Shown: positions 55,342 to 62,247 of the stretch, piece after piece
Layout of the letters: every line of letters begins with the position of its first letter
Numbering within the stretch: position 1 is the first letter of the stretch
Assembly (NCBI GenBank): GCA_963668695.2
Contig: CAXXLQ010000004.1
Location: 3,360,001 to 3,424,000, forward strand
From: Vicinamibacteria bacterium
GTDB lineage: Bacteria; Acidobacteriota; Vicinamibacteria; Marinacidobacterales; Marinacidobacteraceae
Length of the DNA stretch: 64,000 nt
Reading direction: 5' to 3'
Made by a program: the position numbers and the translations under genes
The notes under the pieces: model-generated
Told to the model about the DNA's origin: nothing
The model's database searches: none
What the model saw: the letters and a program-made list of their open reading frames with translations, nothing else

Positions 55342-57426
55342 TCAGTTCCCCTTGTCCTCCGGCAAGGCCAGAGCCACGTAGGACTCCGGCACCCGGCCGC
55401 GCTGACCGGTCTGCACCACGATGTACTGCCGGCCATCGTGCTTGTAGGTCATCATCCCGTACATCCCGATCGCCGGAAGCTCGACGCTGCCGACCTTCTC
55501 GCCAGTCAGCTTGTTGTGGGCATTCAGGACTCGCGGACCCGACATGCCCTCGGTGGTGAGCAGAAGGTCACCGCTCACCATGAGGATCGAGCGCCCCTGC
55601 CCGCCGGCCTTGGAAAGATCCTTCCCCTGAAGCGCCGGATGGTTCTTGATCCGGTCGTTCGGCTCGCCGATCGGGATCCACCAGAGGTGTTCCCCGGTGT
55701 TCATGTCGATCGCGGTGACCCGGCTGTAGGGCGGCTTGTAGATGGGCAGCCCCTCCGGACCCGGTACCCCGATGGTCCGGAAGTTGACCCAGTCGGAGAC
55801 GGTCTCGCCGATAGTGGTGCACTTTCCGCTCGGGGAGGTGCAGTCGTGCACCGACTGATCGGCGTCCACCCCCGGCTGCACCACCCGCCCCGAGCACGAC
55901 GGCCCGGAGGACTGGTAGAGGATGCCGGTGGACGCATCGAGTGCCGCCGGATGGGTGATGTTCACTCCGGCGGTGCTGCCGCAGGCGACCCAGCCCTTGT
56001 TCTCCTCGAATCCCTTCGGGATCGGGGGCGTGTAGGGACCGCCGACCAGATACTCGGAAACGATCTCCATGGCCTGCTGCCGGAGTTCCGGGGTGTAGTC
56101 GATCAGGTTGTCCTCGCTGAGATCCAGCGGCTCGAGCGGCGCCGGCAGCGTCGGGACCGGCTGGGTGGGTGAAAGCTTCTCGCCCGGCACCATGGACTGC
56201 GGAACCTCCTGCTCCTCGATCGGCCACACCGGCTCGCCGGTCTCCCGGTTGAAAGCGAAGGTGTAACCCTGCTTGGTGGTCTGGATGGCCATGGGAACCT
56301 TCTCGCCGTTCACCGTCACGTCCGCCAGGATCGGGACGTTCGGGAGGTCGTAGTTCCAGATCGGATGGTGGGTGGTCTGGAAGTGCCAGACGCGCTCCCC
56401 GGTCTCGGTGTTCAGCGCGATGACGCTGGTGCCGAAGAGGTTGTTTCCGGGGCGGAAGCCGCCGTAGAAATCAATCGTGGGCGCGTTTGTCGGGATGTAG
56501 ACGATGTTGCGGTCGAGATCGGCCGACAAGGGGGCCCAGGAGGAGACGTCGCCCGTCCATTGCCAGGCATCGCTCTCCCAGGTGTCCATCCCGAAGGCGT
56601 CCTCGGACTGCGGGATGACGTGGAACTTCCACTTGAAGGCGCCGGTCTTCACGTCGTAGGCGAGGATGTCGCCGGGGATGTTCTCAATCCGGGTCTGGTG
56701 GTAGCCCTGCGCGTGCGAGTTCCCGATGACGATGGTGCCGTTCACCACGATGGGCGGCGAGGAACTCGTGATGTAGCCGATGGAAGGAGGAAGTCCCTCG
56801 GCGGGGTCGTAGTTGAGGCCGCGGTCGGCGATCAGGTCGGCGACCAGATCCACGACGCCCGTCTTCGGGAACCCCGGGATCGGAACCGGCTTCCCGAAGC
56901 CTTCGAGATGCTCGCCGGTCTGCCCGTCGAACGCGTGCAGGAAGAACCCGGGCGAGACCACGTAGATCACCAGCCGCCCGTCCATCTCCGCGTAAGCGAC
57001 CCCCTTCCCGTAACTCGAACGCATGGATTCCTGAAAGCGTCGCGTATCCGGCTCGCTGTAGGTCCACAGCGTCTCTCCCGTAGCCGGATCCATCGACACG
57101 ACGGTGCGCCGATAACCTACGACCGAGTAGAGCTTCCCGTTGATGTAGCTCGGGGTAGCCTTCGAGAGGTAGCTCGGCTTCGGCCCGTAGTTGTCGCCCC
57201 GCCACATCCAGGCGACTTCCAGGTCGCCGAAGTTGTCCGCATTGATGTCGTTAAGCGGCGAGGAGCGGGTTCCCCAGGCGTCTCCGCTCTGGTAGCGCCA
57301 TTCCCCTTCGGGCATGTCGCGGTTCTGCGCCACGAGGGGCGCCGCCAGCAGCAGCGCGACCGCCAGGATGCCGGCGATCTGCGCCGGGCTTTTCCAAGGC
57401 GCAGAGAGATGGCTCATTCGGGTCAT
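55342..57426 (-). CDS. PQQ-dependent dehydrogenase (quinoprotein glucose dehydrogenase-like), secreted
   Basis: GGAGG SD before ATG 57426; SPLNDINADNF, ATP, SSPP, WHFQTTHHPIWNYD, MTYKHDGRQYIV. Confidence 0.88.
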   Translation of the reverse strand: MTRMSHLSAPWKSPAQIAGILAVALLLAAPLVAQNRDMPEGEWRYQSGDAWGTRSSPLNDINADNFGDLEVAWMWRGDNYGPKPSYLSKATPSYINGKLYSVVGYRRTVVSMDPATGETLWTYSEPDTRRFQESMRSSYGKGVAYAEMDGRLVIYVVSPGFFLHAFDGQTGEHLEGFGKPVPIPGFPKTGVVDLVADLIADRGLNYDPAEGLPPSIGYITSSSPPIVVNGTIVIGNSHAQGYHQTRIENIPGDILAYDVKTGAFKWKFHVIPQSEDAFGMDTWESDAWQWTGDVSSWAPLSADLDRNIVYIPTNAPTIDFYGGFRPGNNLFGTSVIALNTETGERVWHFQTTHHPIWNYDLPNVPILADVTVNGEKVPMAIQTTKQGYTFAFNRETGEPVWPIEEQEVPQSMVPGEKLSPTQPVPTLPAPLEPLDLSEDNLIDYTPELRQQAMEIVSEYLVGGPYTPPIPKGFEENKGWVACGSTAGVNITHPAALDASTGILYQSSGPSCSGRVVQPGVDADQSVHDCTSPSGKCTTIGETVSDWVNFRTIGVPGPEGLPIYKPPYSRVTAIDMNTGEHLWWIPIGEPNDRIKNHPALQGKDLSKAGGQGRSILMVSGDLLLTTEGMSGPRVLNAHNKLTGEKVGSVELPAIGMYGMMTYKHDGRQYIVVQTGQRGRVPESYVALALPEDKGN

Positions 57427-57629
57427 CTGGAACCTCCAGTGATTGGGGAAGCGGCTAATCGTAAGGCTTTCCACGGCCGGTTGGCATCGCCGAAGCGAGG
57501 CGAACATGCGGAACGGCGGCCTCTGGCCGGCACGGTCGCCTGCAAGGGACCAAATCAGCGCCAAGACCCCCGAAAACCACGGGTGTCCACCTGCTACGTC
57601 CGCGGATGTTGGAGCGTTCCATGGGCTAG

Positions 57630-57845
57630 CAGCCTGTGGTGAAACCCAGGCGGCGTTCGAGCGGCGATCCATCCCGGCTGAACCACTCCGCTTCGCTCCG
57701 TTCTGCGTTGCGTTTCGGTCGAAATACACCCGGGCCAGTTCTCCCGGTGGGGGCTCCTCCCTCACGCGCCTTGTCAGCCGGGCGCCTCGCCCCCACCGGG
57801 AGAACTGGCCGCTCTCGGCGCTCACCCGGATCCCACCACAGGCTG
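57630..57845 (+). mobile_element. MITE family A, unit-length copy (216 bp)
   Basis: CAGCCTGTGGTG / CACCACAGGCTG ends with CTAG on both sides; the right CTAG is the upstream gene's stop. Confidence 0.92.
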
Positions 57846-59915
57846 CTAGCGCAGAACGTCCAGCAGATTCGAATGATCGTCCGTCCACAGATAGCGCTCG
57901 TGGGGTTCGGCGGCGTCCCCCGTCCACGGTTCCGCCCGTCCCAGCACGCTCGGATCGGTGATGAAGTCGGTGTTCAGGGTGAGCAGGACCCAGGTCGCGG
58001 TGTAGCGGAAACGTTCCGGTTCCGGGTCGCTGACCATCAACAGCGACAGGAAGTCGAGCTGGAGCGACTGAGCCCGGATCACGGGAGCGAGGTCCACGTG
58101 CCGGTTCGAAATGTGGACGGCAATCGTGCCGCCCGGGGCAAGGCGGCTCTGGTACAGCTCGAAAGCCTCGGCCGTCAGCAGATGGACCGGGATGGCGTCC
58201 CCGGCAAAGGCGTCGAGCACGATCACGTCGAACGCCGGTTCCCCCTCCTGCTGTTCCCTCAGCAGACTCAGTCGGCCGTCGCCGAGCACGACCTCGACAT
58301 CCACCGGCGTATCGGTGAGGAAGGTGAAGAAGTCGCGCGCCGCGCTCACCACCTGAGGGTCGATCTCGTAGAAGCGGAACAGGTCGCCCCTTCGCCCATG
58401 AACGAGTATCGACCCGGTTCCCAATCCGACCACCGCCACCCGGAGGGGCTGGACCAGCCGCCGCTTCGGGTGCCGGTTCAGCACCGCCTCGATGCCGGTG
58501 CCCTCGTAGTAGTAGAGGGTGGGCTCCATGCGGCGTCCGGGAGCGAACCACTGGGAACCGTGCGCGATCCCGCCGTGCCACATGTCGCGGCGCCACTCCG
58601 GGGTGCCCGGGTAAGCCTCCATCACCCGTACGACCCCGAAGAAGTTCCGCGTGGCGGAGAGCGGACGCCGGTGCTCGAGCGCGCTGATCGCGATGACGAT
58701 TCCGAGAGTTGCCGCCGGGACCAGCTTCCACCGCAGGGCCCGGGCTCTCTCGGCGGACGGCCTGCCGACAAGGAAGGCAACCCCCACCGCCAGGACGAGG
58801 GCGAGCGGATACTCCCAGACGTTCGGGAACAGCAACGGACTCCCGAGCGACGCCGCGAGCCCCCCGAGAGCTCCGCCCGCCGTCATCGAGAGATAAAAGC
58901 CCGTGAGGCGGGACGGAACGGGCTTCCTCCGCGCGATCTCCCCATGGACGATCCAGCAACCGATGAACAGGAAGGAGAGCGCCGCAGCAGCGTGTGCGAT
59001 CAAAGCGCTGTCGAGGCCGTAGGTGATGTCCTGGAACCACACGAAGAGGCACGCCGCCACCGAAACGAGTAACAACGGAGGGAGGACGCGGCGGGGGTAC
59101 GGGTTTCCCCCGCGGAACGCCAGGATGAAGGTGAGCAGATAGATGGCGAGTGGAGCGATCCAGAGGAACGGGACCGCCGCCACGTCCCGGGTCAGATGGG
59201 TAGTAACCGCCACCAGCGCCAGCGAGCCGACCGCGGCCAGCAGGAACACCGAAACGTGAAATCCCTGGGCTCCGCGAGGCTCGGGCCGCAAGGCGCCCAC
59301 CGGGGTCCGCGCCGAGAAGAAACCGGCGAGAGTCGTTACGAGGGCGAGCAGAAGGAATCCCCCCGACCACAACTCCGCCTGTCCGGCGAGTCCGACAAGC
59401 GGTTCGAGCAGCAGCGGGTAGCTGGCGAGACCGATGAGGGAGCCCGCGTTCGAGAGCGCGTAGAACCGGTACACGTCGGGCGCCGGCGCTTCGCCCGCTC
59501 CCGGACCGCCGGCGCGCGCCAGCCATACCGAGACCAGCGGAGTGGTTGCGGCGAGCGCGAAGAAGGCGGGCCCAAGGGTGACGAGGAGCGTGAGGAGGAT
59601 CCAGCCCGCCGGAGCCTCCCCGCCCGCGGGAGCCCAGTCGGGTCCGGGGATCGGCGGAAGACAGAACAGGGCGGCCAGACCCAGAACGAGTGCGTGGACC
59701 GCCACCTGAATCCGCGGAGGGAACCGGGTAGCCAGCAGATGCGCGTAGAGATATCCGCCCAGGAGGACTGCCTGGAAGAAGAAGAGCGCCACGGCCCAGA
59801 CCATGGGCGCCCCCCCGTACCAGGGAAGCAGGCTCCGCGCTGCCAGCGGCTGCACGACGAAAAGCAGCAGCGCGCCCAGGAAGACCGCGGCGCCGGAGAT
59901 CCAGATTCTGCTCAC
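57846..59915 (-). CDS. Fused membrane domain / spermidine synthase-like SAM-binding protein
   Basis: Many TM helices; RNFFGV, HGSQ, VVGLGTG, YEIDP, GDGR, LDAF, HLLT.EA, WTDD. Confidence 0.88.
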   Translation of the reverse strand: MSRIWISGAAVFLGALLLFVVQPLAARSLLPWYGGAPMVWAVALFFFQAVLLGGYLYAHLLATRFPPRIQVAVHALVLGLAALFCLPPIPGPDWAPAGGEAPAGWILLTLLVTLGPAFFALAATTPLVSVWLARAGGPGAGEAPAPDVYRFYALSNAGSLIGLASYPLLLEPLVGLAGQAELWSGGFLLLALVTTLAGFFSARTPVGALRPEPRGAQGFHVSVFLLAAVGSLALVAVTTHLTRDVAAVPFLWIAPLAIYLLTFILAFRGGNPYPRRVLPPLLLVSVAACLFVWFQDITYGLDSALIAHAAAALSFLFIGCWIVHGEIARRKPVPSRLTGFYLSMTAGGALGGLAASLGSPLLFPNVWEYPLALVLAVGVAFLVGRPSAERARALRWKLVPAATLGIVIAISALEHRRPLSATRNFFGVVRVMEAYPGTPEWRRDMWHGGIAHGSQWFAPGRRMEPTLYYYEGTGIEAVLNRHPKRRLVQPLRVAVVGLGTGSILVHGRRGDLFRFYEIDPQVVSAARDFFTFLTDTPVDVEVVLGDGRLSLLREQQEGEPAFDVIVLDAFAGDAIPVHLLTAEAFELYQSRLAPGGTIAVHISNRHVDLAPVIRAQSLQLDFLSLLMVSDPEPERFRYTATWVLLTLNTDFITDPSVLGRAEPWTGDAAEPHERYLWTDDHSNLLDVLR

Positions 59916-59951
59916 GAGAGGCGGGGGGGCTTGTTACGATAAGCGGCCATC

Positions 59952-60542
59952 ATGAAGAAACGCCGACCGCATTCTCCGCAAGGTCCCTCCGGAACCGGAA
60001 AGGCAGCGGCTCCGCCGCCGGTTACCGGTCCGGCAACCGCCAAAAAGGGCTGGGGCGCCGCGCCGTACCTCGCGATCGGTTTGCTCGCAGTAGGCGCCGC
60101 GGTGTTCTTCGTCGCGGCCTTCGAGGACACCACCGTGGAGAGCGAACTGCAGCCGGCCTCGGACCTGTCCGCCGCCGCCTATGACCTGGGCGGTCAGGTC
60201 GCCAAGCCGTTTCCCTACTACGACTCGGTCGAGGAGGCGCGCCCCTTCCCGGTGACGCTTCCGCCCAACACCTATACCAACGAAACGCTGCAGACGACCT
60301 ACGCGATCGCCAAGGAGATTCCCGAAGTGCTGGTCCAGTTGCCGTGTCTTTGCGGTTGTCACGGCGCTTCGGAGAATCACGGAAGCCTGCTCGACTGCTA
60401 CGTGGACAACCACGCGGCCACTTGAAGCACCTGCCTCCAGGAGGTCCTCCTGGCCCAGCAGATGCACGAAGACGGAGCGAGTCCCGACGAAATCCGCGAA
60501 GCGATCTACGAGCACGAGTTCACAGACATCCCCCTGCGTTAG
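59952..60542 (+). CDS. PCYCGC-like Cys-rich membrane-anchored protein, probable selenoprotein (TGA 60423-60425)
   Basis: LPCLCGC..H.SLLDCY...HAAT-TGA-STC, continuing in frame as LQEVLLAQQMHEDGASPDEIREAI..F to TAG 60542. Confidence 0.8.
60437..60453 (+). promoter_or_regulatory. Candidate bacterial SECIS element
   Basis: Perfect hairpin CCAGGAG-GTC-CTCCTGG after an 11-nt spacer from the in-frame TGA; loop begins GU. Confidence 0.72.
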
Positions 60543-60614
60543 CGCGCCGAACGGTTCCCTGACGGAACCGCACTCCCGGGCTTTGTCCGCAGGCTGTTCT
60601 AGGTCCGCAGGCTG

Positions 60615-61082
60615 CTAGCGCTCGCGCCAGAAGAGGGGATTCGGGCGGTAGCGCGGGAATGCCCAGGGGAGGTCCTCCATTACCGGCTCGGAGGATGCCT
60701 CCGCCGCCGCTTTGTTTCCCGCTGAACTCGGGGCCCGTGTTCCGTGGTTTTGTTCGAGGTAGTCGAGAACCTTTTCCTGGACTTCGGGCTCGAGCGGCGG
60801 CATTCCCATGCCGAGCATCAGGTCGAGAACCTGTTCCCACTGCTCCCGGTTGAGGTTCGCAGACCTGATGTAGCTGTCGTCATGACAAAAGAGACAGCTC
60901 TCTTCGATGAGCGCCAGGCCCTCATCCGTTGCCGCACGGTCCGCGGCCTGGTTGCCGGGTTCCGGGGAAGTGCCGGTCTCGCCGCCGAAAAGCGCAAACG
61001 CGCTGGGCGGTAGCAGAAGCAGGCCCGCAAGCAGCGAAGCCCGCGTCTCAGAGCGCGGTGACCGCAATCCTGTGCATCGCAT
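60615..61082 (-). CDS. Monoheme cytochrome c, probable partner of the adjacent molybdoenzyme (start uncertain)
   Basis: Signal peptide, CLFCH, W...LDLM..MGM, VLDYL. Confidence 0.8.
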   Translation of the reverse strand: MRCTGLRSPRSETRASLLAGLLLLPPSAFALFGGETGTSPEPGNQAADRAATDEGLALIEESCLFCHDDSYIRSANLNREQWEQVLDLMLGMGMPPLEPEVQEKVLDYLEQNHGTRAPSSAGNKAAAEASSEPVMEDLPWAFPRYRPNPLFWRER

Positions 61083-62247
61083 TGTTCAAGTAGCCCCTCG
61101 GGTTCCAGCCGGGGACGACCATGGGTTGCTGACGTCCCCGGTGATCCGTGGCCCGCGCCCAGATCTCGTAGTGACCCGGGATGTCGAAGGCCACCGAGCC
61201 TTCGAAACGCTGCCACGCGAACGCGTTTTCTGGTTCCTCGAGCTGACACTCCAGCCAGGTCGCTCCAAAGTCGGCGCTTAGATGCATGGCGTTCACCGGG
61301 CCGTCGCCCGCCCATGCCCAGCCGCGTACCGCGAGCGGGCTCGCGGCGGAATGCCGCACCCCGGTTTCGGGACGGGTGATGATGGACTTGACCGGCATCG
61401 GGCCGATGATCTCCATGTCCTCCTCGGGGACCTCGGTCCCCGGGGCCACCGGATAGCGGGGCACGCGGTAGGAAAACCCCGTCATCTTGGGTCCGTCGTG
61501 CACCTGATCGCGGACCCAGAGTCGCCGCAGCCACTTGCCGCTCGCCGAGGCGGGGAAGCCCGGAGCGACCACGCGGAGCGGGAATCCGTGGTGGGGCGGC
61601 AGCGGTTCGCCGTTCATTTCCCAAGCCAGCAGGGTGGAGTCGTCCATCGCCTTGGATACCGGGACCCCCCGCGAAATCGGAATCTCGTCGGGATTTCCGC
61701 TCAGGTGGGGATCCTCCCCGTAGTAGGCGACGTAGACGGCGGTGTCGAGCACCCCGGCAGCGCCCAGCACATCGCGCAGACGCACCCCGGTATAGCGCGC
61801 ACAACCCACGGCGCCGAGCCACCATTGGTTTCCGGACGCTCCCGGCTGAAAGGCCGCCCTCCCGTTGCCCGCGCACTCGAGGACGAGAGCCCGGGTTACG
61901 TTTTCGAATCTCGATCGCAGGTCGGCGAGCGAGAATTCCAACGCGTTTCCGACCTCGCCATCGATCCGGAGCGACCAACCCTCCAGGCTTCCGGAGAGCG
62001 CCCGCTCCGGCAGGCTTCCGTTGTTTCGTACGAAGTGTTTGTCGTTGGGCGTGTGACGCGGATCGAGGTCGGCGACCAGGGTCTCGGCGTTCACCGGCCG
62101 CTCGCTCAGAATCCGGAGGCCGCGCTTCCCGAAGACCGTGCCACCGGTCTGGGCGGCAACGCCCTCCAGGGCCAGGGCGCTCGCGCCGGCAGCCACCGGG
62201 ACCGACCCGAGGAACCGCCGTCTCGACAGGAGATGGACAGGTTTCAT
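61048..62247 (-). CDS. Tat-exported sulfite oxidase family molybdoenzyme (SorA/SorT-like)
   Basis: SRRRFL, FVRNN, LECAGNGR, HGFPLRVV.PG....SGKWL, KS.I, WNPRGYLNN. Confidence 0.92.
   Translation of the reverse strand: MKPVHLLSRRRFLGSVPVAAGASALALEGVAAQTGGTVFGKRGLRILSERPVNAETLVADLDPRHTPNDKHFVRNNGSLPERALSGSLEGWSLRIDGEVGNALEFSLADLRSRFENVTRALVLECAGNGRAAFQPGASGNQWWLGAVGCARYTGVRLRDVLGAAGVLDTAVYVAYYGEDPHLSGNPDEIPISRGVPVSKAMDDSTLLAWEMNGEPLPPHHGFPLRVVAPGFPASASGKWLRRLWVRDQVHDGPKMTGFSYRVPRYPVAPGTEVPEEDMEIIGPMPVKSIITRPETGVRHSAASPLAVRGWAWAGDGPVNAMHLSADFGATWLECQLEEPENAFAWQRFEGSVAFDIPGHYEIWARATDHRGRQQPMVVPGWNPRGYLNNAMHRIAVTAL

Follow-up and report, generated by a model that had tools for sequence, protein, structure and literature searches.

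The segment 59952-60542 on the plus strand of the window (the whole 64,000-nucleotide stretch of Vicinamibacteria bacterium DNA analysed here) very probably forms a single gene for a 196-residue selenoprotein of the already catalogued CYCXC / OS_HP4 / PCYCGC family, and its apparent stop, TGA 60423, almost certainly encodes selenocysteine (Sec). Translation of the full CDS with TGA read as U places Sec at position 158. The start was taken as ATG 59952, the earliest start codon past an in-frame TAA at 59940. As pointed out in the initial annotation, the listed open reading frame (59952-60425) stops at TGA 60423-60425 and the frame then stays open for 38 sense codons (STCLQEVLLAQQMHEDGASPDEIREAIYEHEFTDIPLR) before being closed by TAG 60540-60542. 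The TGA occupies the first position of U-S-T-C, in the sequence ...HAAT-U-STCLQEVLLAQQMHEDGASPDEIR, and aligns with the Cys of HASTCxxC in Cys-form homologues. The 38 codons that follow it (60426..60539, plus strand) specify the remainder of UxxC, its xxC, together with conserved helices at the C-terminus (G175, S177, R182, I185).

Gene callers end the product at residue 157, i.e. 39 residues short, and a truncation at the TGA loses the second half of the UxxC motif together with three conserved helices. The same truncation is found in public protein sets: the nearest database proteins, of 151-162 aa each, cover 80% of the query and are therefore cut at the TGA, one such truncated entry, 83% identical, carrying the label 'Acidobacteria bacterium'. 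Full-length Cys forms are present in the public collection at 43-47% identity; some of them are named 'CYCXC family (seleno)protein' by NCBI and assigned to Vicinamibacteria.

The read-through protein matches NCBIfam NF041379 (equivalog, OS_HP4_CYCXC, 'CYCXC family (seleno)protein') with 102.3 bits (E = 1.1e-29, cut-off 90) over profile positions 2-88 of 90, and Pfam PF13798 (PCYCGC) with 43.9 bits (E = 2.9e-11, cut-off 25). When NF041379 was searched against the six-frame translated genome, the match scored 99.3 bits and contained one TGA. The CxCxC family signature is present as a PCLCGC motif at residues 131-136 (60342..60359, plus strand). In alignment A2, which comprises 54 sequences, the invariant positions are C132, C134 and C136 of this motif, H143, S145-L-L-D148-C149, H154, C158 (the Sec column), E164 and R182, and C161 is nearly invariant. 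The family's Sec column carries UxxC or CxxC, and Sec/Cys pairs occur among the homologues.

The initial annotation had surmised that Sec forms of this family might already be catalogued. This is the case, as seen from the name of NF041379 and from tables in two reviews: one row of PMC9312934 reads 'Hypothetical protein OS_HP4', UxxC, 1 Sec, and PMC13188914 lists Hypothetical protein OS_HP4 / CYCXC family protein, UxxC, 1 Sec. OS_HP4/CYCXC is given there as a computational selenoprotein prediction. For OS_HP4, both reviews cite the 2007 Olavius-symbiont paper (PMC1976440), the main text of which names OS_HP1-3 only, OS_HP4 not being found in that text.

To follow the TGA among relatives, NF041379 was searched in 61 genomes, the source genome included. 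Among the 27 further genomes of the source family, 26 gave one match, each with exactly one in-frame TGA; the one that gave none is ~92% complete. The neighbouring family gave a stop-free (Cys) match in 17 of 19 genomes and, in one of its genera, all four genomes (4/4) carry a second, TGA-bearing copy. Alignment of 15 Sec and 15 Cys forms placed the U of ...DNHAAT-U-STC... against the C of ...DxHAST-C-xxC..., and more loci agree. The TGA therefore sits at the family's first Cys, as had been proposed, with Cys at this column in homologues. Nor is it unique to this assembly, a possibility raised in the initial annotation, since it is kept in 26/26 same-family genomes with the gene.

A wider survey of the phylum used an even sample of 301 genomes, its tally taking in one unpublished genome (G083). 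Matches at E <= 0.001 were found in 71/301 genomes. Above the profile cut-off there were 32 genomes, four with TGA (G000, G075, G286 and G308) and 28 with Cys; below it, eleven more TGA-bearing matches were distributed over 8 genomes. One TGA-bearing paralogue, at locus L059 (G053:C30:15318-15570), is split over two reading frames, which may be due to a frameshift or an assembly error.

We compared the 38 post-TGA codons of this gene with those of other Sec forms. The pN/pS ratio was between 0.10 and 0.66 in 12/12 pairwise comparisons; on these ratios, the downstream codons are under purifying selection. Synonymous change was rarer over the ten codons at the start of this stretch, those of the hairpin described below, than in the remainder (~2 in 7.5 sites vs 14 in 16.3 in the comparison with L044). 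Such a deficit over the hairpin fits an added constraint at the RNA level. Both the peptide and the hairpin were found to be conserved beyond the TGA, a point that the initial annotation had singled out for verification.

The putative bSECIS upper stem-loop, CCAGGAGGUCCUCCUGG, lies at 60437..60453 on the plus strand and is composed of a 7-bp stem and a GUC loop (-9.9 kcal/mol), the loop G being 18 nt after the UGA. It had been correctly described as an 11-nt spacer (60426-60436) followed by a 17-nt palindromic hairpin, CCAGGAGGTCCTCCTGG, with a GU-initiated loop. The consensus bSECIS model of bSECISearch described in PMC13188914, as given in the legend of its Fig. 2, has a loop of 3-9 nt, an upper stem of 4-16 bp, a UGA-loop spacing of 16-37 nt, at least one G in the first two loop positions (mostly then G or U) and an MFE <= -7.5 kcal/mol. 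The hairpin agrees with this consensus in its small loop of 3 nt starting with G then U, its 7-bp stem, its 18-nt spacing and its energy of -9.9 kcal/mol, below -7.5 kcal/mol. A difference is that no bulged U is evident in the 7-bp stem at 60437-60453. An 11-nt spacer plus a 17-nt hairpin is also the minimal geometry of the E. coli fdhF SECIS; the arrangement is the same here and the sequence is unrelated.

Folding energy is not exceptional for this hairpin: an equally good fold was given by 12/200 shuffles of the 17-mer and, for the 66-nt region (z = -1.08), by 27/200. Since this is not beyond chance in GC-rich DNA, the case rests on the comparison with relatives. Thirty-two Sec-form sequences (27 + 5) were gathered, from which alignment A1 retains 27 distinct 60-mers starting at the TGA. 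L058 was excluded from A1 because its hairpin is located 3 nt further downstream and differs in sequence (CATCGCG/CGCGATG stem, CGUGA loop).

The upper helix, formed by A1 columns 15-21 and 25-31, is 98.9% paired over the 27 sequences. Of its seven pairs, four are the same throughout and two change in both partners. At pair 16-30, 23 sequences have C-G and 4 have A-U, the latter all being paralogues from one genus; at pair 21-25, G-C is found in 21, A-U in 4, G-U in 1 and a broken pair in 1, with the change also present in L070, from the same family as the source genome. The compensatory changes represent few events. The covariation score of the whole structure was 0.138, compared to a shuffled mean of 0.081, and was reached by 0/500 shuffles; slid controls, in which the 3′ partners were moved by 1-3 columns, scored 0.034-0.078. 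Loop positions G22 and U23 are invariant in A1. No hairpin was observed at the corresponding position in 15/15 Cys forms, whose peptide there is MKEAVL in place of the LQEVLL of Sec forms; the putative SECIS hairpin also dictates the peptide encoded.

The initial annotation had also suggested a lower stem, CTGC 60431-60434 with GCAG 60458-60461 (60431..60461, plus strand). These segments do pair in the single-sequence minimum-energy fold. Their pairing is not conserved over the 27 sequences, where the lower helix (columns 5-12/36-43) is 76.7% paired, pair 11-37 forming in 13/27 and pair 9-39 in 15/27, and no pair changes on both sides. As a consequence of this low pairing without compensatory change, the lower helix was not counted in the element; the RNAalifold consensus likewise drops it and keeps the upper helix only.

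From these features, SelB with Sec-tRNA(Sec) would most likely recognise the hairpin 60437-60453, 11 nt after UGA 60423. Selenocysteine would then be inserted at residue 158, and translation would run on to TAG 60540.

The source genome (4 contigs, 4.1 Mb, estimated 91.7% complete with 9.3% contamination) carries the machinery for this step, the presence of which had been proposed as a check. All components scored above their cut-offs: selA with 499 bits (cut-off 268), selB with 306 bits for its N-terminal part and 327.9 with the C-terminal piece (cut-off 242), selD with 252.7 bits (cut-off 125) and tRNA-Sec (selC) with 69.7 bits (gathering score 47). ARAGORN also reported a tRNA-SeC with anticodon tca. 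The four genes and the selenoprotein gene are all located on one contig, C4.

Independent samples were sought in public data, where 15 runs from several studies contain half or more of the words sampled from 59800-60700. Contigs of two RNA libraries from one study (X9 and X10) span 59957 to beyond 60688, a contig of an RNA library from another study (X17) spans 60158-60512, and one of a DNA run (X11) spans 59892-60523. In these four runs, with one bridging contig each, no other letter was found at 60423-60425. As RNA libraries may contain DNA and the contigs show no transcript ends, this constitutes evidence against an assembly error and weak evidence for transcription. Most or part of 59800-60700 is contained in the 'sponge metagenome' runs X11, X12 and X17, and also in runs under four other organism labels.

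Both the X9 and the X10 contigs start at 59957, 5 nt inside the open reading frame, and the contig of the DNA run extends further upstream. No Shine-Dalgarno-like sequence was found ahead of ATG 59952. Although such contigs cannot establish transcript ends, the two observations hint weakly that the mRNA is leaderless or nearly so. At the other end of the gene, a terminator scan found nothing terminator-like immediately past TAG 60542; on the plus strand, the closest sites are at 60729-60747.

Could TGA 60423 nevertheless be a true stop? The product would then have 157 residues and the downstream 114 nt would be the untranslated remnant of a longer ancestral gene. The short public entries of close relatives (151-162 aa, 80% of the query) would agree with such a product, and TGA does serve as a normal stop codon too in this lineage, where a number of homologues end in it. 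Against this stand the TGA kept at the same column in 26/26 family genomes and in further lineages, a downstream frame that is open and under purifying selection in 12/12 comparisons, the complete Sec machinery and the conserved hairpin. The truncated product would also be deprived of C161 and of the conserved C-terminal helices. We consider a true stop highly improbable. That the TGA arose from faulty assembly or sequencing, or from a mutation that recently inactivated the gene (pseudogene) in the source genome, is an idea that a draft of 4 contigs with 9.3% estimated contamination might invite. Its probability is negligible, and it is effectively refuted already by the same TGA in 26 other genomes of the family and by the independent bridging contigs of X9, X10 and X17 (RNA) and X11 (DNA), which show no other letter.

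Returning to the 196-residue selenoprotein, we examined its architecture on an AF2 model (mean pLDDT 70.6, moderate overall; 69-92 in the C-terminal domain). A single transmembrane helix is predicted at residues 37-58 (60060..60125, plus strand), in line with the membrane anchor put forward in the initial annotation, with a Lys/Arg-rich N-terminus before it and an acidic linker after it. Membrane topology is predicted from flanking charges by the positive-inside rule; with the Lys/Arg-rich N-terminus and the acidic segment following the helix, the Cys-rich domain should therefore face the periplasm. The protein is thus predicted to be anchored in the inner membrane in an N-in/C-out orientation and to display a small, all-helical outer domain of ~100 residues. 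In the model, a disordered linker (61-83) leads to an all-helical domain from ~93 to 192, of which helices 159-173, 178-186 and 189-192 have pLDDT values of 87-92. U158 immediately precedes helix 159-173.

DSSP assigned helices only and no beta strand to the AF2 model, which therefore does not support a thioredoxin fold. A thioredoxin-fold thiol oxidoreductase, which requires a central beta-sheet flanked by helices and a CxxC at the N-terminus of helix 1, was rejected on this predicted structure. Foldseek gave no match in the PDB at E <= 0.001 (best E = 3.7), and a profile search of PDB sequences with A2 gave 0 hits at E <= 1. With VIA-align against 48,161 chains, the best match was a designed zinc-induced homodimer (Z = 5.3); CcmH (2hl7_A) was aligned over 65 residues with Z = 3.9 and an rmsd of 3.0 Å, where Z < ~8-13 may reflect a common helical arrangement only, and MerR-family metal sensors reached Z = 3.2-3.6. 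All of these scores lie below the meaningful range for helical models, and the matches are regarded as analogies only. A search of the ESM Atlas with the Cys-form homologue P0089 returned PCYCGC clusters and unnamed clusters at 0.76, below the lead threshold.

An extracytoplasmic, metal-binding or redox role, as read in the initial annotation, is plausible. With a probability approaching an even chance, in our estimate, the outer domain would hold a soft-metal (Cu, Zn or similar) site made of thiolates, one selenolate and His, and the protein would act as a periplasm-facing metal handler or sensor. We lean towards this reading because the CxCxC motif, two His, Asp and the UxxC pair would, taken together, be more usual as ligands of a soft metal than in a simple dithiol switch. 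Sec is found in a UxxC of other metal-handling proteins in the review tables, for example in the COG2217 (ZntA) row and in a CobW-like protein (PMC9312934). There, Sec likewise replaces the first Cys of a CxxC and the Cys forms are plausibly metal ligands, while the folds and families are unrelated to those of the present protein. Sec in UxxC alone does not, therefore, imply a redox enzyme.

The outer domain could instead be a thiol/selenol-disulfide oxidoreductase without a thioredoxin fold, in which U158-x-x-C161 would cycle between selenol/thiol and selenylsulfide. By analogy with CcmH, it would reduce or isomerise a periplasmic client. This is a possible reading, with an appreciable yet minority probability. 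It is favoured by the position of UxxC at a helix start in the AF2 model and by the reviews, where UxxC is classed with redox motifs and a redox role is assumed for the majority of prokaryotic selenoproteins (PMC9312934). At the distant locus L076, moreover, the gene shares its strand with an AhpC/Redoxin gene. Conversely, the invariant CxCxC, two His and Asp resemble metal ligands more than the residues of a dithiol redox site, no beta strand is present in the predicted model, and no recurring partner reductase was observed in the neighbourhoods examined. PDB 2hl7 is the periplasmic domain of CcmH, a helical thiol oxidoreductase with a CxxC motif that is anchored in the membrane and takes part in cytochrome c maturation. 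The two proteins have in common a small helical domain with a CxxC-type motif and tethering to the outer face of the inner membrane, which is known for CcmH and predicted here. CcmH is not known to have the set of CxCxC, His and Asp residues. The two sequences are not similar (0 PDB profile hits, E up to 1), and the comparison is an analogy, not a family assignment. A function other than a metal site or an oxidoreductase seems unlikely.

The gene neighbourhood was then considered. A 689-aa homologue of 'fused MFS/spermidine synthase' (57846-59915, minus strand; NF037959 63.8 bits, cut-off 40), a multi-pass membrane protein with a C-terminal spermidine-synthase-like domain, is encoded head-to-head with the selenoprotein gene, with 36 nt between the start codons. 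On the other side, a pair resembling the periplasmic sulfite dehydrogenase SorAB is arranged tail-to-tail (convergent) with the selenoprotein gene. It includes a SorB-like c-type cytochrome of 155 aa with a CxxCH haem-c motif (60615-61082, minus strand), below the SorB equivalog cut-off, and a SorA-like molybdenum sulfite dehydrogenase of 399 aa (61048-62247, minus strand), with Oxidored_molyb and Mo-co_dimer matches and below the SorA equivalog cut-off. The SorA-like protein has a twin-arginine-type N-terminus (SRRRFLG) and a dimerisation domain. Further away, a PQQ-dependent dehydrogenase beta-propeller is found at 55342-57642 on the minus strand (PF01011, 507 bits); its open reading frame runs upstream to 59526 in high-GC DNA and overlaps the neighbouring gene, and its true start is therefore much later than that of the mechanical ORF.

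Synteny was counted within 1.5-kb flanks at 30 loci of the source family and the neighbouring family. The head-to-head MFS/spermidine synthase neighbour was present in 22/30 and the SorAB-like pair was adjacent in 15/30. Among 20 loci of more distant families of the phylum, MFS/spermidine synthase was found in 0/20 and a Mo-enzyme in 1/20, with 28% identity. Since the adjacency is not seen in these distant families, it may be inherited synteny, and the conserved neighbours were not retained as a clue to function. Other neighbourhoods have no common theme: they include a P-type ATPase with DUF4198 and AhpC, XdhC with a MobA-like protein, FTR1/FtrD, and an RND pump.

A distant TGA-bearing PCYCGC subfamily of the same class, below the NF041379 cut-off, shows another arrangement, in which a same-strand hybrid histidine kinase (HisKA + HATPase_c + receiver) follows the gene and a sigma-70 gene lies beside it. 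This was observed in 5/8 copies (L086, L087, L089, L090 and L094, in G167, G225, G057, G315 and G214, respectively) and not in the three copies at L085. A FabA-like gene is often located upstream in the kinase-linked subfamily. At L085 (G315:C1:2542700-2557700), the three TGA-bearing PCYCGC paralogues lie within 9 kb; long open reading frames (566-712 aa) that match no Pfam family are located downstream of the paralogues or between them.

The histidine-kinase-linked TGA subfamily, together with the adjacency of MFS/spermidine synthase and SorAB, raises the idea that the CYCXC domain might be a selenolate/thiolate module that faces the periplasm, senses metal or redox state and signals to partner membrane proteins. 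We regard this as rather improbable. Should the gene links be functional, the reactivity tuned by Sec would be that of a sensor and not of a catalytic enzyme.

With CxCxC, Sec as the first residue of UxxC and Cys-form homologues in common, the protein shows no material difference from the CYCXC family (NF041379/PF13798), of which it is an ordinary, routine member. As the family is already catalogued, the result is an annotation correction and not new biology, and its practical value lies in a corrected annotation, both for this gene and for its near relatives among public proteins. For the family, it gives a tidy Sec/Cys pattern, with one acidobacterial family all Sec and a neighbour family with Cys forms and, in one genus, Sec paralogues.
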